This document shows positions 46,049-59,005 of a stretch of 64,000 nucleotides of DNA, one piece after another. The notes below the pieces were generated by a model. The model ran no database searches. It had not been told where the DNA came from and was given only the letters and a program-made list of their open reading frames with translations. Made by a program: the position numbers and the translations under genes. Source of the stretch: Bacteroidota bacterium (GTDB lineage Bacteria; Bacteroidota; Bacteroidia; UKL13-3). Position 1 is the stretch's first letter; each line of letters starts with the position of its first letter. The stretch covers positions 15,421 to 79,420 of the forward strand of contig JANYDU010000001.1 of assembly GCA_025359805.1 (NCBI GenBank), given 5' to 3'.

Positions 46049-48552
46049 GTGACTCAAAAGAAACTGGATTTTTAGATAACAGAAATAAGGTTATTGATGT
46101 AAATAAGATATTTGTTATCCTTCTATCTAGATGGTATTTGATTGTTGGATCTATTTTAGTTAGTTTACTAACGGCTAATCTTATGCTTCGTTACGCTCAA
46201 CCAATCTATTTAGCAGAACTTACTTTGAAATTAGAAGATGAAAAACCTAATCAACTTAATGATATTTTCAAATTCGGAAGACCTGCTGGAAAATTAGATA
46301 ATCTTTTAAAAACAGAGAGTGAGATTATTAAATCCAGAACTATGGGCATTAAGACTCTAAAAAAATTAAACTACTTTATTACATACTCTATTAAAGGCAG
46401 TATTATTTCAAGAGAGCTCTATCCAAATAATTTTTTTTATATTTCTTATTTATATGTTGATAGTTCCTTTAAAAATAATAAATATGTAATTAAGTTCAAG
46501 AATGTTTCAACATTTGAAATTGGAATTGATGATGGCAATGTTCAACAAAACGACTTTGAAACTCATCATATAAATGACACTTTTATTTTTAATAGGTCAT
46601 TACTAATTGTCAATCTTACAAATGAAAATCTTCTCAAATCATATCTTGGAATACCAATAAACTTTAAGATAAATGATATAGTTTCTTTAGCAAGTTCATA
46701 TTCGAGTAATTTAAATGTTGAAATTGAAAAAGGTGCTAGTATTTTGAATATGAGTTTTAGTTCCAAAAATGCTGAATTCTCAGCAGATTATCTAAATGCT
46801 ATAACTCAAGTTTATATTGATGAGTCAGTAAACTTAAAATCTCAAGCACTTCAACAGACATTAACTTTCTTGAACGACCAACTTATTGACTTATCTCAGA
46901 AAGTAAGAACTTCTCAAAATGATTTGACTAGCTTTAAAACCCAAAACAAGGGGGGAGAATTAGATGATGTTGGTATTAAGCAATTGGATAAGCTTACAAA
47001 ACTAGAAACAGAAAGAAATATTTTACAGTTAAATTTAAGAATGCTTTTACAGTTGGAAGCGAATGTGAAAAATCCGAAAAACAAATCATTGAGCTATATG
47101 ACTTTTGACAATGAAGATTTTCAGGCTCTCCCTCAACTTTTTAGTCTACTTAACATATTATTAATGGAAAAAATTTCCTTATTATCTCAACATACTTCTA
47201 ATAGTCCTATCGTAATTGAAAATCAAAAAAAATTAGATGAAGTCAAGGAATCTATTCTTAAAAATATTGCCTCATTAAAAGAGAAATTAGCAGAAAAGAT
47301 TAATTACAACAATAATTTAATTAGTGAAACCAATGGAGAGCTTTCTTCACTACCCGCTAAACAACAAAACTTAATCAATATGCAAAGGGAGTTTAAGGTA
47401 AATGAAAAAGTTTATAATTATCTTTTAGAAAAGAAGTTGGAAACTTCAATTAGTCGCTCTTCTATTATTTCTAATGCTACTGTAATTGATAATGCGCTTA
47501 TTCCTACAAATCCAATTTCACCCAAAAAAGACAAGAATTATCTAACTGCATTGATTATAGGATTTGGGTTTGGAATGTCTTTAATATTTATAATTCGTCT
47601 TTTAAATCAAAAAATCCCCGACAAAGAAACTATCGAGTCCCTAAGTAATACCCCTGTTATTGGAGTAATTAAAAAAGTGAATTCGGATGAAGAGCAAAAT
47701 GCGGAATATGATGTATATGTTTTTAAGGGGCCCAAATCTATTTTTACAGAATCAATTAGAGGTATTAGGACAAACATCAATTTTATTCTCAAAGGGGAAA
47801 AAAATAAATCAATAAGTGTTACATCTACTGTGAGTGGTGAGGGGAAAACATTTTGCGCTATTAATATTGCAGCATCTTTAACTATGCTTAATTACAAGGT
47901 AATTATTGTTGGTTGTGATTTGAGAAGACCTAAAATACATCTTTCCTTTCAAGGAATGAGTAATGATATTGGTTTAACCACTTACCTTATAAAGAAAAAC
48001 ACACTTGATGAAGTAATTTTAAAAACAGATTTTGAAAATCTATATGTACTTCCTGCTGGACCAACCCCTCCAAATCCAGCCGAATTATTACAAACTGATG
48101 AAATGGAAAAGCTTTCAGCTATTCTTAAAACAGATTTTGATTATGTGATTTTTGATAATGCACCAGTAGGAATTGTCTCTGATGCTTTTTCACTTATGGA
48201 AAAAGCCGACTTGAATTTATTTATCATTAGAGCTCAATATTCAAAACGTGATTTTGCTTTAATTCCTGATAGATTAAAGATAGAAAGTGAAATCCCTAAT
48301 TTATATACTATTTTGAATGCGTATGAAGAGACTTCTGTAACTTATAGTAGTATATACAAATTGGAAAAAGGAGGTGCGGCCTCAGGAGGAGGATATGGTT
48401 ATTATTATGTAGGATATAATGGAGGGTATGGATATTATGGTAAAAAATATTATTCATCTTACTATTCTGGCTATTATAGTGATGAAGAACCTAAACAAAA
48501 ATGGTGGATGAAATTATTCAACAAAAAAAGAAAAAAAACGAACAATGTCTGA
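46045..48552 (+). CDS. wzc: Polysaccharide co-polymerase/BY-kinase (Wzc)
   Basis: Two TM segments; TSTVSGEGKT, GCDLRRP, IFDNAP; C-terminal Tyr cluster. Confidence 0.93.
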   Translation: MSDSKETGFLDNRNKVIDVNKIFVILLSRWYLIVGSILVSLLTANLMLRYAQPIYLAELTLKLEDEKPNQLNDIFKFGRPAGKLDNLLKTESEIIKSRTMGIKTLKKLNYFITYSIKGSIISRELYPNNFFYISYLYVDSSFKNNKYVIKFKNVSTFEIGIDDGNVQQNDFETHHINDTFIFNRSLLIVNLTNENLLKSYLGIPINFKINDIVSLASSYSSNLNVEIEKGASILNMSFSSKNAEFSADYLNAITQVYIDESVNLKSQALQQTLTFLNDQLIDLSQKVRTSQNDLTSFKTQNKGGELDDVGIKQLDKLTKLETERNILQLNLRMLLQLEANVKNPKNKSLSYMTFDNEDFQALPQLFSLLNILLMEKISLLSQHTSNSPIVIENQKKLDEVKESILKNIASLKEKLAEKINYNNNLISETNGELSSLPAKQQNLINMQREFKVNEKVYNYLLEKKLETSISRSSIISNATVIDNALIPTNPISPKKDKNYLTALIIGFGFGMSLIFIIRLLNQKIPDKETIESLSNTPVIGVIKKVNSDEEQNAEYDVYVFKGPKSIFTESIRGIRTNINFILKGEKNKSISVTSTVSGEGKTFCAINIAASLTMLNYKVIIVGCDLRRPKIHLSFQGMSNDIGLTTYLIKKNTLDEVILKTDFENLYVLPAGPTPPNPAELLQTDEMEKLSAILKTDFDYVIFDNAPVGIVSDAFSLMEKADLNLFIIRAQYSKRDFALIPDRLKIESEIPNLYTILNAYEETSVTYSSIYKLEKGGAASGGGYGYYYVGYNGGYGYYGKKYYSSYYSGYYSDEEPKQKWWMKLFNKKRKKTNNV

Positions 48553-50786: not shown

Positions 50787-51299
50787 TTGTTATCCCACTC
50801 CACTCAAAAATGGTATGCACTTTATACCAATCCTAGATCTGAAAAAAAAGTTTTTCACGAGTTGAATATACGTGGGTTTGAAACTTTTTTACCTCTGCAA
50901 AAAACATTAAAACAGTGGAGTGATAGAAAAAAGAAAGTTGAAATTCCATTATTCAATTCTTATATTTTTGTTAAAACTGAATTGGAGAAAAATTATTATG
51001 CTATTCTTGAAATTCCGGGTATCGTAAAATTCGTTAAGTTCGGAAAAGAAATAAATTCAATTAGGGATGAACAGATTGATGCTATAAAATTACTGTTATC
51101 TAATTTTGATGATATTGAGTTGAGTGATGAAATTATTCAGGTATATCAAAAAGTAGAAATCATTGCAGGGCCTTTAACTGGATTTAAAGGGATAACAATT
51201 GAAAACCAAGGCAATAAAAACTTTGCCGTTGAATTGGAACAAATTGGATGCACGCTTCGTGTAAATATTCCTAAGCATTTTATCAAAAAAGTTATTTAA
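50787..51299 (+). CDS. upxY: UpxY-family transcription antiterminator (NusG paralog)
   Basis: WYALYTNPRSEKKV, FLPLQ...QWSDRKKKVEIPLFNSYIFV, KOW VEIIAGPLTG. Confidence 0.92.
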   Translation: MLSHSTQKWYALYTNPRSEKKVFHELNIRGFETFLPLQKTLKQWSDRKKKVEIPLFNSYIFVKTELEKNYYAILEIPGIVKFVKFGKEINSIRDEQIDAIKLLLSNFDDIELSDEIIQVYQKVEIIAGPLTGFKGITIENQGNKNFAVELEQIGCTLRVNIPKHFIKKVI

Positions 51300-51414: not shown

Positions 51415-51945
51415 ATGTTAGATACCTTAATTACTTCTAAGACACGTATAAAATTATTGCTAAAATTCTTCTTGAACGATAATACATCATCGTATCTCAG
51501 GAATTTAGAAAATGAGTTTGGTGAAAGTTCGAATGCTATACGACTAGAGTTAAATAAATTTGAAGAAGCAGGATTATTAAAAACTTCTGTAAGCGGAAAT
51601 AAAAAACTTTTTAAAGCCAACAACACACATCCTTTATTTAAGGATATTCAAAATATTTTAATGAAATATACCGGACTCGATCAAGTGATTGAAGAGGTTA
51701 TACAAAAACTTGGAGATGTTGAGAGAGTTTATCTTGTGGGTGATTTGGCAAAAGGAATTAATAGCTCTGTAGTTGATTTAATTTTTATTGGTAGTTTAAA
51801 TAAAAATTATTTAACAAATTTGATTGGTAAATCGGAAAAAATTATTTCAAAAAAAATCAAATACATTATTTATACAGAAGAAGAATTTTCTATTTATAAA
51901 AAACAATTGAAGGATGAGATTTTCATCTTGTGGATAAAAGAATAA
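51415..51945 (+). CDS. Winged-helix (ArsR-like) regulator fused to a degenerate nucleotidyltransferase-fold domain
   Basis: LITSKTRIKLL..F..SYLRNL..EFGESSNAIRLELNKFEEAGLL; C-domain VYLVGDLAKG..VVDLIFIG. Confidence 0.75.
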   Translation: MLDTLITSKTRIKLLLKFFLNDNTSSYLRNLENEFGESSNAIRLELNKFEEAGLLKTSVSGNKKLFKANNTHPLFKDIQNILMKYTGLDQVIEEVIQKLGDVERVYLVGDLAKGINSSVVDLIFIGSLNKNYLTNLIGKSEKIISKKIKYIIYTEEEFSIYKKQLKDEIFILWIKE

Positions 51946-51956
51946 ATGAATAATAT

Positions 51957-53822
51957 ATGGCTAAAGTATTAGGAATATCAGCATTTTATCATGACTCAGC
52001 GGCAGCAATAGTTGAAAATGGAAAAATTATTGCCGCTGCTCAAGAAGAACGATTTACCAGAAAAAAACATGATCCAAATTTTCCAATCAACGCTGTGAAA
52101 TTTTGCTTAGAATATGCAGGGACAAATGTAAATGAACTTGATACAATAGTATTCTATGATAAACCATTGCTTAAGTTTGAAAGACTACTTGAAACCTATT
52201 ATGCATTTGCTCCCAAAGGCTTACGTTCTTTTATTACTTCTATGCCAGTATGGCTTAAAGAAAAAGTCTTTCTTAAGAAGTTAATACACGATTCTATGAA
52301 AGAAATTGAAGGGTACGATAAGAGTAAAGTTAAGCTTCTTTTCCCTGAACATCATTTATCTCATGCGGCTAGTGCATTTTATCCTTCTTCATTTGAAGAA
52401 TCAGCGATTATAACAATTGATGGTGTTGGCGAATGGGCTACCGCATCAATCTGTCATGGAAAAGGAAATAGTATCACAATATTAAAGGAATTAAAATTCC
52501 CACATTCTTTGGGATTATTATATTCTGCATTCACTTATTTTTTAGGATTTAGAGTTAATTCAGGAGAATATAAATTGATGGGGCTTGCTCCATACGGAAA
52601 TGTAGGGTCAGAAGAAGTAAAAAATTATGTAAAGATTATCAAAAATGAATTAATTGAAATTAACGAGGATGGTTCGGTTTGGATTAATCAAAGCTATTTT
52701 AATTATGCTACTGGTTTGAGGATGGTTAATGATTCTAAGTGGGAAACTCTTTTTGGTTTTAAAAGAAGAAATGCTGAAGACGAACTTGAACAAAAACATT
52801 GTAACTTGGGACTTGCAATACAAGAGGTAACGGAAGAGATAGTATTACTCATGGCACAAGAAGCAAAACGATTAACAGGAAGTGATTACTTATGTATGGC
52901 AGGTGGTGTGGCACTAAATTGTGTTTCAAATGGAAAGCTATTGAATTCAGGAGTTTTTAAAGATATATTTATTACTCCACCCTCTGGAGATGCTGGAGGG
53001 GCATTAGGTGCTGCTTTGGCAGGTGATTATATTTATTTCAATACCCCAAGGATATTATCAGGAAACAGAGATGAATTACAAGGTTCCTATTTAGGTAATG
53101 AAGTAACAGAAGATGATATTAACAGAACCGTCAAAAAATATAAAGCTGTTGCAACCAAATATGATGATGTAAATCAATTATCTAAAGCTACTGCTAAAAT
53201 ATTGAGTGAAGGAAATGTAGTAGGTTGGGTTCAAGGAAGAATGGAATTTGGACCGCGTGCATTGGGAGCAAGAAGTATTTTGGGTGACCCACGAAATGAA
53301 GAAATGCAGAAAAAACTCAATCTTAAAATTAAGTATAGAGAATCATTCAGACCTTTTGCTCCATCGGTATTAGCAGATGACAGTGAGGAATATTTTGATC
53401 ATAAAGGTATTTCTCCTTATATGTTATTGGTTCAACCTGTAAAGAAGGAACGGAGAAAAATACTCCCTGATGGTTATGAAGGGTTTAACTTGAAAGAAAA
53501 ATTATACTATTTGCGTTCGGATTTACCTGCAATCACTCATATTGATTTCTCTGCCAGAATTCAAACGGTTCATAAAGATACTAATCCGAACTACTATGAT
53601 CTCATTTCTGAGTTTAAAAAAATAACGGGTGTTGGAGTGGTAGTAAATACTTCTTTTAATGTAAGGGGTGAACCAATTGTTTGTACATCTGATGATGCTT
53701 ATCGTTGTTTTATGCGTACGGAGATGGATTATTTGGTTGTTGGCAATTATTTGTTTGATAAAAAACAACAGCCTGAATGGCAAAAAACAGATAATTGGCA
53801 GGAAGAATTTGTATTGGATTAA
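51957..53822 (+). CDS. NodU/CmcH-family O-carbamoyltransferase (SxtI-like)
   Basis: LGISAFYHDSAAA, EERF.R.KH, EHHLSHAASAF, DGVGE, GEYKLMGLAPYG, AGGVALN, GRMEFGPRALG.RSI, RE.FRPFAP, NTSFN. Confidence 0.95.
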   Translation: MAKVLGISAFYHDSAAAIVENGKIIAAAQEERFTRKKHDPNFPINAVKFCLEYAGTNVNELDTIVFYDKPLLKFERLLETYYAFAPKGLRSFITSMPVWLKEKVFLKKLIHDSMKEIEGYDKSKVKLLFPEHHLSHAASAFYPSSFEESAIITIDGVGEWATASICHGKGNSITILKELKFPHSLGLLYSAFTYFLGFRVNSGEYKLMGLAPYGNVGSEEVKNYVKIIKNELIEINEDGSVWINQSYFNYATGLRMVNDSKWETLFGFKRRNAEDELEQKHCNLGLAIQEVTEEIVLLMAQEAKRLTGSDYLCMAGGVALNCVSNGKLLNSGVFKDIFITPPSGDAGGALGAALAGDYIYFNTPRILSGNRDELQGSYLGNEVTEDDINRTVKKYKAVATKYDDVNQLSKATAKILSEGNVVGWVQGRMEFGPRALGARSILGDPRNEEMQKKLNLKIKYRESFRPFAPSVLADDSEEYFDHKGISPYMLLVQPVKKERRKILPDGYEGFNLKEKLYYLRSDLPAITHIDFSARIQTVHKDTNPNYYDLISEFKKITGVGVVVNTSFNVRGEPIVCTSDDAYRCFMRTEMDYLVVGNYLFDKKQQPEWQKTDNWQEEFVLD

Positions 53823-53851: not shown

Positions 53852-55285
53852 ATGCTTTTTAACGATTTTAGATTTTTCATCTTTTTTGCAATAGTATATG
53901 GGCTATTTCTTGCCACTCCTAAAAAGGGCAAGAACATCATTTTGCTATTGTCAAGTTATGTGTTTTATTCTTTTTGGGATTGGAGGTTTCTTTTATTACT
54001 GATGCTTTCTACATTGATTGATTATTTTTTCGGTATAATAATATATCAAGCAGGAACTACTGAAAAGAAAAAGCGTTACATGTGGTTTGGGATTTTTAAT
54101 AATTTATTGGTATTAGGAGTCTTTAAATATTACAATTTCTTCATTGATTCATTTGCAGGAGTTCTAATTCAAATGGGATTTGAGCCCCATTTTCCAATTC
54201 TTAATATTATCCTTCCTGTTGGAATTTCATTTTATACATTTCATGGAATGTCTTATGTAATAGATATATACAGAAATCAGTGCGTGCCCACAAAAAACTT
54301 TGTTAATTATTCTCTTTTCGTTTCTTATTTCCCTCTATTAGTAGCAGGCCCAATTGAACGCGCAACTCATTTATTGCCACAAATTGAAAATAAAGATAGA
54401 AAAGTTACACGCCAAAATATTATTGATGGATTAACTTTAATCTTAATTGGGTATGTAAAAAAAGTGTTAATTTCAGATAATATTGGTTCCAAAGCGGATT
54501 TTATTTTTGGAAACATTTCAACTTCAGGATCCTTTGAATTACTTACAGGACTTATTATATTTTCTTTCCAAATTTACTTTGATTTTTCTGGATATAGTGA
54601 TATTGGAAGAGGAGTATCGAAGTTGTTCGGAATTGATTTATTGATTAATTTTAATCAGCCTTACCTTTCACAGAATATTTCTGAGTTTTGGAAAAGATGG
54701 CATATCTCTTTATCATCTTGGTTAAGAGATTATCTTTATATCTCTTTGGGAGGAAACAGAAAAGGGAAAAACAAAACATATATAAATTTATTTATTACAA
54801 TGTTATTGGGAGGATTATGGCATGGTGCAAGTTGGAATTTTGTGATATGGGGAGGGTTACATGGAGGGTATTTAGCCATTCATAAAATGTTTGGGGGTAA
54901 TAATAAAACAAATGAAATTCGTATTAATTCATTAACTAATGGGATAAAGGTATTCTTAAATATATTATTAACATATATACTAGTGTTGATTACTTGGCTC
55001 CCATTTAGATCAAAATCATTTTCTGATACGACAAGTTTTGTACGAACATTTTTTCAGTTTAATGGAGGTATTAAATTAGAAGATGTTCTGTATATAGGTT
55101 TTCTGTTTTTTGTGTTTCTTATACTTGATCTTCCTGCATATAAGGCTAATAGCCATACGACATTTATTTACAAGTTACCAAATTGGCTTATAGCTTTGTT
55201 ATTTGTAATTATTAGTATAGCAATTGTGGTTAGTATGGCTATGAATCAAAATAATATCAGACCATTTATATATTTTCAATTTTAA
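53852..55285 (+). CDS. MBOAT O-acyltransferase (AlgI/PatA/DltB family) with terminal FIYFQF motif
   Basis: LPVGISFYTF, FPLLVAGPIER, YFDFSGYSD, NF.QPY, FWKRWHISLSSWLRDYLYI, GLWHGASWNF; ends RPFIYFQF-stop. Confidence 0.95.
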   Translation: MLFNDFRFFIFFAIVYGLFLATPKKGKNIILLLSSYVFYSFWDWRFLLLLMLSTLIDYFFGIIIYQAGTTEKKKRYMWFGIFNNLLVLGVFKYYNFFIDSFAGVLIQMGFEPHFPILNIILPVGISFYTFHGMSYVIDIYRNQCVPTKNFVNYSLFVSYFPLLVAGPIERATHLLPQIENKDRKVTRQNIIDGLTLILIGYVKKVLISDNIGSKADFIFGNISTSGSFELLTGLIIFSFQIYFDFSGYSDIGRGVSKLFGIDLLINFNQPYLSQNISEFWKRWHISLSSWLRDYLYISLGGNRKGKNKTYINLFITMLLGGLWHGASWNFVIWGGLHGGYLAIHKMFGGNNKTNEIRINSLTNGIKVFLNILLTYILVLITWLPFRSKSFSDTTSFVRTFFQFNGGIKLEDVLYIGFLFFVFLILDLPAYKANSHTTFIYKLPNWLIALLFVIISIAIVVSMAMNQNNIRPFIYFQF

Positions 55286-55297
55286 ATATAATTTTAA

Positions 55298-56284
55298 ATG
55301 AAGCTAAAAGAGATTTTAATTAACAGTATTTTTTTTATTGTATCCTTCATAATTGTGTTTGCAATAGCTGAGGTTGGTTTCCGATTTTATACGGATAGAA
55401 AAATGATTTATGATATTGAAATGCACAAGTATGCAAAAAAATTAAAGCAAAGAAGTTCTGTTCCTGGATTGAGTCATGAACACATTCCAAATGCTGAAGC
55501 GAGCTTAATGGGTGTTGACGTTAAGATAAATAGTATAGGATTTAGGGATGATGAATTAAGTAGTCCAAAGAGCTCAAATGAAAAAAGAGTTTTGATTATT
55601 GGGCAATCTATCACTTTTGGCTGGGGAGTTCCAAAAGATTCAATCTTTTTAGAGCAAGTTGAACATAGGTTGAATATGGAGAATGATAGTATTAAATATA
55701 GTTTTATCAATTCTGGTATTGGAAATTATAATACTGAACTAGAAAGTATTCTATTGAAAAAAAATCTACCTATTGTAAACCCTGATATGGTAGTATTACA
55801 TTGCTTTCTTAGAGATGCAGAAGTGATTCCTTCAAAAAGTCAAAATTTTCTGATAGCGAATTCCTACTTAATTGCGTATATGTATATTAAAATAAAGCAA
55901 GCATTTTTTTTTAAAAATCAAGCATATAAAAATATAGGAGAATATTATTTGAATATGTACCAACCGACTTCAGAAGGTTGGAAAAAACAACAAGAAGCAT
56001 TGTTAAATATAAGAAAGCAATGTGAAGAAAGGAACGTTCCTTTACAATTAATTATTCAACCTGATTTGAATGATTTAAGTATAAATTCGCCTCAAGAAAA
56101 ATGTTATCAAATCATTCGAAGTTTTTTAAATGAAAATCATTTTTCATTTATAGACATGAGCGGTGTGTATAGAGAAAAGGTAAAAGTGCCAAACTCGATT
56201 TGGGTAAGTCCTGAAGATTCTCACCCAAATTCAGAAGGACACAAAATAATTGCAGACGAATTAATCAAGGTCTTTAAATATTAA
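55298..56284 (+). CDS. Membrane-anchored SGNH-family acyltransferase/esterase
   Basis: N-terminal TM; IGQSITFG (block I); DSHPNSEGH (DxH). Confidence 0.8.
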   Translation: MKLKEILINSIFFIVSFIIVFAIAEVGFRFYTDRKMIYDIEMHKYAKKLKQRSSVPGLSHEHIPNAEASLMGVDVKINSIGFRDDELSSPKSSNEKRVLIIGQSITFGWGVPKDSIFLEQVEHRLNMENDSIKYSFINSGIGNYNTELESILLKKNLPIVNPDMVVLHCFLRDAEVIPSKSQNFLIANSYLIAYMYIKIKQAFFFKNQAYKNIGEYYLNMYQPTSEGWKKQQEALLNIRKQCEERNVPLQLIIQPDLNDLSINSPQEKCYQIIRSFLNENHFSFIDMSGVYREKVKVPNSIWVSPEDSHPNSEGHKIIADELIKVFKY

Positions 56285-56297
56285 TTACACACTTCTT

Positions 56298-57392
56298 TTG
56301 AAAACATTTAAAAATATTATTTCTGTTACTGTTCCAAGTCTATTGTTCACTTTTCTTTTATTAGAGTTAGTATTCAGATTTGTAATACCTGCCACCGATT
56401 CGCCAAAATATAAATTTAACAATGAGTATGGTTTTTTATGTTTTGATGAAGATCAAAATAGAGAAGGAACTTATAGTGTAGGCAGGTTTGCTGAAATTAG
56501 AACGAAGTGGAAACTAAATAACTATAATTGGAATTGTGCATATGATTTTTCCGAAAAAAAAGATTCTTCTATAAAAAGAATTGTGGTTATCGGTGCCTCT
56601 TATGTTGAAGGCTTACTTGTTAATCAAGATGAGAGTTTTACTTATTATTTAAATGAAAAATTAAAAGGTAAATATGAAGTGTATCCTATAGGAATATCAG
56701 GTGTGCCATTATCAGGATATCCAGATATGATTCGATATTCGATTGATAAATTTAAGCCGGATGTTATTGTCCTTTATAACTATTTTGCGAACTTAAACCA
56801 TTCATTCTATATTGATGGAGAATATAATCTATATAAGAAGATAAGATTGAATAATGATTCTGTTTTATTTGTTGATGCGAAAGAATATCACCCAAGTAGA
56901 TTTAGAAGATTTATTGCTAAATCGGCATTTATAAGATATTTGATAGGTAATCTTCAAATTGAAAAATTAAACTTATTTTTTAATACTAATGAAAATACTA
57001 AAGTTGAAAAACAGGAAAGTGTACCTGTAAATACTGGAGATAAAGATTTAATTTTAGGATGTAATTTTATACTTCAAAACATCAGAAATGAGTCAAAAGA
57101 TATTCCTGTCATTCTTATGCAAGATGTGGCGAGAAGCGAAATATATGATGGAAAGCCAGCAAATCTATTATCTGACTATGAAATGAGATCACTCGTTAAA
57201 TCATCATGTGAACAATATGGAATAAGATATATGGATTTATCAGATTGTTTTATTAATGATTATCAAAAAAATAAGAAAAAATTTGAATACCCTACCGATG
57301 CTCACTGGAATCCCTATGGAAACAAGGTGGTAAGTGACTACATATATAACTATTTATTAACCTGTAATTATTTAAACAATGGACTTCATTAA
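56298..57392 (+). CDS. Membrane-anchored SGNH-family protein (AlgJ/AlgX-like)
   Basis: N-terminal TM; IGASYVEG; DAHWNPYGN. Confidence 0.75.
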   Translation: MKTFKNIISVTVPSLLFTFLLLELVFRFVIPATDSPKYKFNNEYGFLCFDEDQNREGTYSVGRFAEIRTKWKLNNYNWNCAYDFSEKKDSSIKRIVVIGASYVEGLLVNQDESFTYYLNEKLKGKYEVYPIGISGVPLSGYPDMIRYSIDKFKPDVIVLYNYFANLNHSFYIDGEYNLYKKIRLNNDSVLFVDAKEYHPSRFRRFIAKSAFIRYLIGNLQIEKLNLFFNTNENTKVEKQESVPVNTGDKDLILGCNFILQNIRNESKDIPVILMQDVARSEIYDGKPANLLSDYEMRSLVKSSCEQYGIRYMDLSDCFINDYQKNKKKFEYPTDAHWNPYGNKVVSDYIYNYLLTCNYLNNGLH

Positions 57393-57528
57393 AGATCTTC
57401 TAAAATTTATCTCTCAAAGGAAAAAGTTTTTTCTTATTCCTGTCATTATCGTATTGCTTCTTCTTGGAATATTAATTGTTTTAGGGGGTGGATCAGCAAT
57501 TGCACCGTTTATCTATACATTATTTTAA
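57379..57528 (+). CDS. Unannotated 49-aa DUF5989/SxtK-like membrane peptide ending FIYTLF
   Basis: MDFIKDLLKFISQRKKFFLIPVIIVLLLLGILIVLGGGSAIAPFIYTLF-stop; overlaps the upstream stop and ends 2 nt before the next ATG. Confidence 0.88.
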   Translation: MDFIKDLLKFISQRKKFFLIPVIIVLLLLGILIVLGGGSAIAPFIYTLF

Positions 57529-57530
57529 TT

Positions 57531-58640
57531 ATGAAAATACTACTGTACAATTTTTTATCACTTCTATTATTAATTATAGTGGTTGAAGTCGTGCTCAGAT
57601 TTTTTCCAGTTGATGATCCCTATCAGAGTTATAAACAATTCATCAAACCAACATTAATCCGATCGCAATTTCTTCCTCATATGAAACTTGAATTCGAAAA
57701 TGAAGATTCACTTCTTGGTTTCAGTTCTTATATGAAAAAAACAAATTTTACTACTAATTCTATGGGATTTAGAGGTGTTGAGATTGATCCTAAAGATACT
57801 AACTCATTTAGAATATTTTGTATTGGAGGGAGCACAACAGAATGTATGAGATTAAATGATGGAGACGATTGGCCTGGATTAGTTCAAAAGTCATTACCTT
57901 TATTTGAAAACAAGAAGGTTGAAGTTCAGAATTGCGGAAAATCGGGAGACGATCTTCAAGACCATCTTTCTATGTTGATATATCGAGTTGCTTATTTAAA
58001 GCCAGATGTAGTTATCATATTTTCTGGTATTAATGATGTTAGAAGATCTTATTTTGATGATAATCCATACAATATTGAATTAAATCGTATATCAAGAATT
58101 CCTTTTATTAAAATGTGGGCCTCAGAATTCCAATTATATAGACGATTTTATAATGTGATTAAAAACCAATCTGCTCCTTCTGCTGAAAGCATTTCAATAA
58201 AATCAAATTATAAAGAACAAGTAATTTACGAAAAAAAGGCTCCACGTTCGGATAGTGTTCCTCCTGTAGACAATGCTATTTACAGAAGTAAATTAAAATC
58301 TATTATTGGAATTTGTAAAGCAAATAATATAAGATTGATTATAGCTACACAAAAAACGAATTGGACAACAAATGATGTAATGCTTAAAAAATGGCTTTAT
58401 ATGAATTTGATTTATGATGTTGCCTATAATAAAGTTATTCTTCAAATGAAAATGGACGAACTTAATAATATTCAAAAAAGTGTGTGTAGAGATTTTAAAG
58501 TTGAAGTTTTGGATGTAGATTCACTCATTCCTGGTTCAGCAAAATACTTTTACGATGATTGTCACTTTAACCCAGAAGGGAGTATAAAAATGTCAGAACT
58601 TGTATTATCTAAAATTAATAACAAAACCAATATAAAATGA
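57531..58640 (+). CDS. Membrane-anchored SGNH/GDSL-family protein
   Basis: N-terminal TM; IGGSTTEC; SGIND (block III); DDCHFNPEG. Confidence 0.8.
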   Translation: MKILLYNFLSLLLLIIVVEVVLRFFPVDDPYQSYKQFIKPTLIRSQFLPHMKLEFENEDSLLGFSSYMKKTNFTTNSMGFRGVEIDPKDTNSFRIFCIGGSTTECMRLNDGDDWPGLVQKSLPLFENKKVEVQNCGKSGDDLQDHLSMLIYRVAYLKPDVVIIFSGINDVRRSYFDDNPYNIELNRISRIPFIKMWASEFQLYRRFYNVIKNQSAPSAESISIKSNYKEQVIYEKKAPRSDSVPPVDNAIYRSKLKSIIGICKANNIRLIIATQKTNWTTNDVMLKKWLYMNLIYDVAYNKVILQMKMDELNNIQKSVCRDFKVEVLDVDSLIPGSAKYFYDDCHFNPEGSIKMSELVLSKINNKTNIK

Positions 58641-59005
58641 AAACTAATACACATAAAAATGACCTTAAAAGTATACTGGTAATTGTTACTGGATTTTTAG
58701 TTCTGTATTTTTTTACCAAGAATGAATGGCTTTTTTATATAGCTTTATCGGTAGCATTAGTATCATTAATAACTCCATTAGGCCAACATGCAATTTTATG
58801 GATTTGGGAAAAAATAGCGCACGTTTTGGGCTGGATAAATACCAGAATTTTATTGACAATTGTTTTCTACGGATTTTTATTCCCAATATCTTTAATTACA
58901 AGAATAAAATTCAGAAATCTTCTTCAACTTAAAAAACAAGGTAAATCTATTTTTGAAGAACGTAATCACTTATATACTAAAGAAGATCTTGAAAATCCTT
59001 GGTAA
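58637..59005 (+). CDS. SxtJ-family membrane protein
   Basis: Two N-terminal TM segments, then WEKIAHVLGWINTRILLTIVFYGFLFPISLI.R..LL.L...S.F; ends LENPW. Confidence 0.8.
   Translation: MKTNTHKNDLKSILVIVTGFLVLYFFTKNEWLFYIALSVALVSLITPLGQHAILWIWEKIAHVLGWINTRILLTIVFYGFLFPISLITRIKFRNLLQLKKQGKSIFEERNHLYTKEDLENPW

Follow-up and report, generated by a model that had tools for sequence, protein, structure and literature searches.

DltX carries D-alanine on the invariant tyrosine of its C-terminal FXYXXF motif; in PatA this motif is part of the enzyme's own C-terminus and is auto-acetylated, and PatB takes acetyl from an acetylated FIYANF peptide (PMC12148441). DltB loads a separate microprotein, the partners of FXYXXF tails (DltD and PatB) are SGNH transferases, and non-Dlt pathways are said to lack a DltX-like microprotein (PMC12148441). 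A different set of proteins, SxtI-SxtJ-SxtK-SxtL, is known from cyanobacterial paralytic-shellfish-toxin (sxt) clusters, where a carbamoyltransferase (CT), SxtJ (PF19588), SxtK (DUF5989) and a GDSL/SGNH protein occur together; the sxt literature says only that SxtJ and SxtK "combine with SxtI", and guesses that SxtL is a decarbamoylase. Here we analyze the same set in a 64,000-nucleotide stretch from a Bacteroidota bacterium (assembly GCA_025359805.1, contig JANYDU010000001.1, positions 15,421 to 79,420; hereafter the window), where, in contrast to the sxt clusters, it lies in a capsule locus and its likely acceptor is a glycan. The DUF5989/SxtK member of this set is a 49-residue peptide that ends in FIYTLF. 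The linkage of these families to CT (sxt literature) and the FXYXXF motif itself (PMC12148441) are already known; our literature search found no paper that uses the term DUF5989 or links SxtK with a tyrosine shuttle. A free tyrosine-motif peptide that travels with a CT suggests a new carbamoylation route for surface sugars, and our best reading of the module is a DltX-like carbamoyl-tyrosine shuttle, to which we assign a probability of roughly 45%.

The DUF5989 open reading frame (ORF) occupies window positions 57379..57528 on the + strand and encodes MDFIKDLLKFISQRKKFFLIPVIIVLLLLGILIVLGGGSAIAPFIYTLF. It starts at the first ATG past an in-frame stop (the frame opens at 57376), no competing ORF of at least 40 residues was found on the opposite strand, and the gene is present in one copy in the source genome. 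The Pfam family PF19451 (DUF5989) matches residues 1-49 of 49 with an E-value of 3.1e-24 and 85.2 bits against a cut-off of 27. The peptide consists of an amphipathic N-terminal part, a basic patch (R14-K15-K16), a single transmembrane (TM) helix within an uncharged hydrophobic stretch of 22 residues (17-38), a GGGS hinge and the terminal FIYTLF (residues 44-49), in which the tyrosine is Tyr46. This is a genuine membrane microprotein of the DUF5989/SxtK family, and the description given by an earlier note on this DNA (a 49-residue chain with RKK, a single TM helix and FIYTLF at its end) holds. The N side carries a net charge of +3 and the C side one of 0, so the positive-inside rule places the tail outside, as that note had also argued. 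Among the 436 stop-to-stop frames of at least 40 residues in the window, only this peptide and the membrane-bound O-acyltransferase (MBOAT) of the same operon end in F.Y..F, as compared to 0.09 expected by composition.

The family is large, with 4,929 clusters at 50% identity (E<=1e-3), and identity across phyla is 50-80%. All of the 80 loci, drawn from ten or more phyla (among them Bacteroidota, Cyanobacteriota, Nitrospirota, Pseudomonadota, Acidobacteriota, Elusimicrobiota and Verrucomicrobiota), retain F44, Y46 and F49; these loci are the best 80 matches of a pattern scan in which one of the two patterns included the tail, which somewhat biases the apparent invariance. Their tails read FIYTLF (77), FIYSLF (2) and FVYTLF (1). 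Among near relatives, 119/120 end in F[IV]Y..F; the one that does not is a read-through copy in which FIYTLF is still present. Among 146 cluster representatives the three residues are kept in all but one frameshifted copy. Further variants (FIYTIF, FIYAVF, FIYTVF, FIYPLF and FIYALF) leave F44, Y46 and F49 constant in intact copies. Tyr46, whose invariance the earlier note had singled out for checking, is thus present in every intact copy, in a sample biased toward the tail. The N-terminal part (F3, K5, D6, F10 and RKKFW) is nearly as conserved, such that the cytoplasmic N-part and the outer tail are both near-invariant between phyla. Apparent natural DUF5989 fusions did not hold up: the long cluster representatives owe their length to starts miscalled in GC-rich DNA, and a 434-residue open frame in one genome (G112) is spurious. 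The peptide there is an orphan ending in FIYALF (L087:5383-5529) that adjoins FtsX-type permeases, with the CT and SxtJ genes of the genome on other contigs; a second DUF5989 gene distant from CT and SxtJ lies at L017:1188-1337.

The genomic company of DUF5989 is close to constant. Of the 80 loci, 75 carry CT and 76 carry SxtJ, and an anchored SGNH gene is found in 59/80, or in 29/38 of the loci with at least 8 kb of flank on both sides. MBOAT genes occur in just two of the 80, both with a FIYF[QD]F tail of their own. A phyletic profile of 151 genomes of the phylum gave the same result. DUF5989 is encoded in 58 of these genomes (38%); in 57 of them a CT reaches at least 269 bits, which no CT does in the remaining 93 genomes, and other CT subfamilies score at most 224 bits; and SxtJ occurs in 55 genomes, all within the DUF5989-positive set. 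The triad holds even where its genes are dispersed (G036, G112, G013, G040 and G144). The window CT (309 bits) falls in the high-scoring clade that is restricted to DUF5989-positive genomes. MBOAT genes are found in 29/58 DUF5989-positive genomes (50%) and in 35/93 DUF5989-negative ones (38%). Given the 29 carrier genomes that lack an MBOAT, together with its rarity in the loci, the peptide is not an MBOAT accessory. DUF5989 is an obligate subunit of a four-part membrane module of CT, SxtJ, DUF5989 and at least one anchored SGNH protein, and the co-occurrence that the earlier note proposed to look for where no MBOAT is present is borne out in loci, in genomes and in the minimal cassettes described below. 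Exceptions among the 80 loci are explicable, such as L003, where an insertion sequence sits upstream of the peptide gene, and Trichodesmium.

In Trichodesmium erythraeum IMS101 (L053:9572-20149), six anchored SGNH paralogues stand in tandem after SxtJ and DUF5989, and the genome has its sole CT at a distance of ~22 kb. In other filamentous cyanobacteria, CT, SxtJ and DUF5989 precede a run of three to five SGNH genes.

Natural fusions join two of the parts. L058:243-2486 encodes a 747-residue CT-SxtJ fusion, and such fusions form nine clusters (744-748 residues) from independent sources, a gammaproteobacterial lineage. Three loci hold a minimal cassette in the order SGNH (340-375 residues), CT-SxtJ, DUF5989 (50 residues, ending in FIYTLF), with the fusion genes located as follows.

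L089:8001-10244, CT-SxtJ fusion
L090:8001-10238, CT-SxtJ fusion
L091:3792-6029, CT-SxtJ fusion

Neighbouring genes in these three loci encode FtsK, LolA, RarA, SHMT, NrdR and RibD, and both MBOAT and glycosyltransferase genes are absent nearby. The fused cassette indicates that the four parts make a self-contained unit, and the fusion places the N-terminus of SxtJ in the cytoplasm. The suggestion of the earlier note that SxtJ is the membrane partner of CT gains support from these fusions. No CT-TM-SGNH fusion was found in the sampled loci and genomes; a 969-residue frame in G039 is a fusion of a GT4 glycosyltransferase to a CT of another subfamily. This 966-residue protein (L088:4257-7157) is encoded in a genome without DUF5989 or SxtJ, and presumably represents a contrasting, wholly cytoplasmic design of carbamoylation.

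SxtJ of the window scores 27.7 bits against a Pfam cut-off of 24.4, and a profile of 73 relatives matches it with an E-value of 1.2e-36. Its AlphaFold2 (AF2) model has a predicted local distance difference test (pLDDT) score of 90.5, with helices at 7-27, 30-45 and 47-91, and a fold search found no structural analogue in the PDB. Conserved residues are few: P47, W57, P83, R89, G92, D94 and a terminal E-x-P-F/W. This last motif stands at the extreme C-terminus after a Lys/Arg-rich stretch, and reads ENPW in the window and KNQF, EKPF or TRQF elsewhere.

For comparison with the Dlt system we used Listeria DltX (L085:1444-1587; 48 residues, ending in FIYNEF), the only DltX that our records gave, as dltX was not found beside the stand-alone plasmid dltB genes of L. 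murinus, B. mycoides and E. faecalis. The two peptides have much in common: a length of ~48-49 residues, a basic N side, one TM helix, a short linker, the terminal F-I-Y-x-x-F and adjoining genes for anchored SGNH proteins, and hhalign sets both tails in register. They differ in their partners, which for DUF5989 are CT and SxtJ and not DltA, DltC and DltB, and in cargo, proposed to be carbamoyl for DUF5989 as compared to D-alanyl for DltX. DUF5989 is also far more conserved across phyla, whereas our search for DltX reached Listeria only. In addition, the window MBOAT has its own tail, whereas Dlt combines a tail-less DltB with DltA and DltC, and half of the genomes that carry DUF5989 have no MBOAT. 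No DltA- or DltC-type domain was found by Pfam in the nine operon proteins scanned.

The operon is arranged as follows.

50787..51299, + strand: NusG/UpxY-like antiterminator at the head of the polysaccharide operon (Pfam NusG, E 1.3e-21)
51415-51945: 176-residue ORF between the NusG-like gene and CT, with no Pfam match
51957..53822, + strand: CT, a cytoplasmic carbamoyltransferase of the NodU/TobZ/SxtI type, 621 residues (Carbam_trans_N PF02543, E 3e-91; Carbam_trans_C PF16861, E 1e-74)
53852..55285, + strand: AlgI/PatA-type MBOAT with its own FIYFQF tail at residues 472-477 (PF03062, E 3e-29)
55298..56284, + strand: SGNH1, N-terminally anchored (GQS104, DSH309), with weak GDSL Pfam matches
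56298..57392, + strand: SGNH2, anchored (GAS101, DAH336), a distant SGNH3 paralogue (phmmer against SGNH3, E 2e-10) with weak GDSL_2/ALGX Pfam matches
57379..57528, + strand: DUF5989/SxtK microprotein, 49 residues (Pfam E 3.1e-24)
57531..58640, + strand: SGNH3, anchored by a TM helix at 2-24 (Lipase_GDSL_2, E 1e-14)
58637..59005, + strand: small polytopic membrane protein of the SxtJ family, 122 residues (Pfam SxtJ PF19588, E 4.8e-6)

The genes for SGNH2, DUF5989, SGNH3 and SxtJ overlap or almost abut: the DUF5989 start overlaps the SGNH2 stop by 14 nucleotides, SGNH3 begins 2 nucleotides past the DUF5989 stop, and the SxtJ start overlaps the SGNH3 stop (ATGA). In the CT, a Kae1-like N domain is joined to a YrdC-like C domain, as in the TobZ type. 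The 176-residue ORF may be a small operon regulator.

The MBOAT reads ...RPFIYFQF at its end, in line with the FIYFQF of the earlier note, and SGNH1, with an N-terminal hydrophobic anchor, starts 12 nucleotides 3' of it. An MBOAT with a fused FXYXXF followed by an anchored SGNH protein is the arrangement of PatA/PatB, and the same SGNH family is found here beside DUF5989 as well; the difference from PatA/PatB is a free motif-bearing microprotein that is not tied to the MBOAT. The window is a natural control, as it holds two tyrosine tails and three SGNH proteins in one operon. The two other MBOATs of the source genome (C47:49835-52211 and C23:74154-76586) also end in FIYFQF, and each is followed by an anchored DltD-like protein of 306-319 residues (LGSS...D-x-x-H-L-N) that has no significant Pfam match and is unrelated to SGNH1-3.

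SGNH3 has the block I Ser, block II Gly, block III Asn and block V His, and these catalytic blocks are kept in the SGNH proteins of the modules (n=56; Gly99 55/56, Ser101 55/56, Gly139 48/56, Asn168 49/56 and His345 56/56). Its AF2 model shows an N-terminal TM helix and an SGNH core with pLDDT >90. In a phylogenetic tree, SGNH3 clusters with, and is taken as an orthologue of, SGNH genes from MBOAT-less CT/SxtJ/DUF5989 modules (L015, L016, L030 and L047; support 99/85), and SGNH1 clusters with both MBOAT-flanking SGNH genes of L076 (100/96). SGNH2 sits on a long branch with an unresolved placement. SGNH1 is likely the partner of the MBOAT, by position, but a firm pairing had to be dropped: the wider SGNH1 clade, together with the MBOAT-adjacent SGNH of L054, interleaves with SGNH proteins of MBOAT-less modules, and the SGNH of the minimal cassette is likewise MBOAT-less. 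Neither tail of the window can be assigned firmly to one of its three SGNH proteins, and the pairings we use below are putative. A single SGNH family that adjoins either tyrosine tail favours a shared type of donor.

An E-h-h-h-R motif stands at the outer end of the N-terminal anchor in all three window proteins (AEVGFR, LELVFR and VEVVLR, within window positions 55298-55400, 56298-56390 and 57531-57610, respectively). By strict pattern, it is found in 33/87 module SGNH proteins and in that of the minimal cassette (AEWVLR), and it is absent from Listeria DltD. The tyrosine tail may dock at this motif.

In the shuttle that we propose, the cytoplasmic CT would make carbamoyl-AMP from carbamoyl phosphate and ATP, and would dock on SxtJ and on the conserved cytoplasmic N-terminus of the peptide. 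It would then carbamoylate Tyr46, with the hydrophobic 11-residue tail folding at the GGGS hinge to re-enter the membrane; access of the tail to the SxtJ-docked CT is pictured, by analogy, like that of the DltX tail in the DltB funnel. The O-carbamoyl-tyrosine tail could swing to an outward-facing SGNH protein (SGNH3, perhaps SGNH2), whose Ser101 would accept the carbamoyl group for transfer to a hydroxyl on the exported glycan. Alongside, the MBOAT would auto-acetylate its own FIYFQF and the acetyl group would pass to an SGNH protein, probably SGNH1, with the two lines in the one operon kept apart by their different tails (FIYTLF and FIYFQF). The chemistry has parallels. In NiFe hydrogenase maturation HypF, of the same superfamily as CT, transfers carbamoyl to the C-terminal Cys of HypE, and serine hydrolases readily accept carbamoyl from aryl carbamates. 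As proposed here, a YrdC/Kae1-type carbamoyltransferase loads the flexible C-terminal side chain of a partner protein in HypF-HypE; that pair differs in being soluble and in using Cys rather than Tyr, with no membrane crossing and no SGNH acceptor.

Were this mechanism correct, exported glycans could be O-carbamoylated outside the cytoplasm with neither an MBOAT nor an AT3 protein, and the tyrosine-shuttle principle would extend beyond acyl groups. SxtJ, SxtK/DUF5989 and the SxtL-type GDSL proteins, roleless since 2008, would gain a testable role. Plausibly, though at less than even odds, CT, SxtJ, DUF5989 and an anchored SGNH protein form a third class of trans-envelope group transfer beside MBOAT-SGNH and AT3-SGNH, which in this operon would run beside an acetylation line. 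The module is common, being found in 38% of the sampled genomes of the phylum and, as ~4,900 protein clusters at 50% identity, in many phyla.

Several results weigh against the shuttle, beyond the sampling bias toward the tail. The first is a gap in the chemistry: we infer all of the chemical steps, along with the topology and the choice of SGNH protein for each tail. Under the positive-inside rule Tyr46 lies outside, as opposed to the cytoplasmic CT, a difficulty that the earlier note had itself raised, and the analysis gave no evidence for a conduit. SxtJ has no conserved residue that is obviously catalytic. The earlier note had called the peptide DltX-type, which stands as regards the motif, since FIYTLF fits the published FXYXXF throughout the family, and fails as regards sequence homology. 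None of 33 DUF5989 members matched Pfam DltX (PF12459) at E<=10, the hhalign alignment of DUF5989 with Listeria DltX was not significant (E 0.064, probability 0.9%), and a PDB profile search with DUF5989 did not find DltX, returning a weak match to the N-terminus of a geopilin (E 0.19). Homology to DltX is thus not detectable, and what the two have in common is architecture and motif. In 9/38 fully flanked loci no SGNH gene lies within 10 kb, and no consistent substitute was found in these nine, which are surrounded by genes for glycosyltransferases, Wzy_C proteins and sugar-nucleotide enzymes. Finally, the fold of SGNH3 best matches ordinary esterases in Foldseek, with no preference for DltD or PatB.

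In the main rival to the shuttle, which we consider rather unlikely, SxtJ and DUF5989 would be a membrane adaptor that only tethers or activates CT at the inner face, where a lipid- or nucleotide-linked sugar would be carbamoylated directly while the SGNH proteins of the glycan locus act as separate esterases or acetyltransferases. In its favour, the CT is cytoplasmic, its natural fusions to SxtJ show that tethering matters, DUF5989 resembles SxtJ in having no obvious catalytic residues, the nine loci above have no SGNH gene nearby, and other CT subfamilies act without these partners, as in the GT4-CT fusion of G039. An adaptor, however, leaves unexplained why an uncharged tail should point outward and why an exact C-terminal F-x-Y-x-x-F should be the most conserved part of the peptide, and gives no account of the anchored SGNH that is kept in the minimal cassette.

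A second alternative retains the carbamoylation of Tyr46 and changes what follows: the SGNH proteins would be decarbamoylases or esterases, as in the classical guess for SxtL, or the acceptor would be something other than a glycan. The esterase matches of SGNH3 and the naming of the GDSL neighbour as a decarbamoylase in the sxt literature fit this scheme. We nonetheless judge it improbable, as the SxtL assignment is a prediction only, the established partners of FXYXXF tails, DltD and PatB, are SGNH transferases (PMC12148441), and the window locus is a glycan locus.

The fallback offered by the earlier note, in which the MBOAT loads the DUF5989 tail besides its own and the cargo of the peptide is acetyl instead of carbamoyl, draws on the presence of both tails in one operon, with P-F-I-Y in common, and on the precedent of DltB, which serves a separate microprotein (PMC12148441). 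It is refuted as a general mechanism by the distributions given above, in which MBOAT shows no association with DUF5989 and half of the carrier genomes lack one; since the window MBOAT has a tail of its own, we regard this scheme as highly improbable here as well. A pilin-like protein or a chance small ORF, as hinted by a JGI label ("competence protein ComGC") and by the geopilin match, can be set aside with near certainty because the peptide has no G-F prepilin cleavage site and no Glu5, matches DUF5989 over its full length and is strictly coupled to CT and SxtJ.

The surroundings of the operon are those of a capsule/exopolysaccharide locus, with Wza, Wzc, a UDP-sugar dehydrogenase, epimerases, the NusG/UpxY-like protein, a DegT aminotransferase, an ABC exporter and a CapD-like enzyme. 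The Wzc-like protein carries a long Gly/Tyr-rich end (window 48400-48552), GGYGYYYVGYNGGYGYYGKKYYSSYYSGYY, in which the tyrosine cluster is unusually extended for a BY-kinase.

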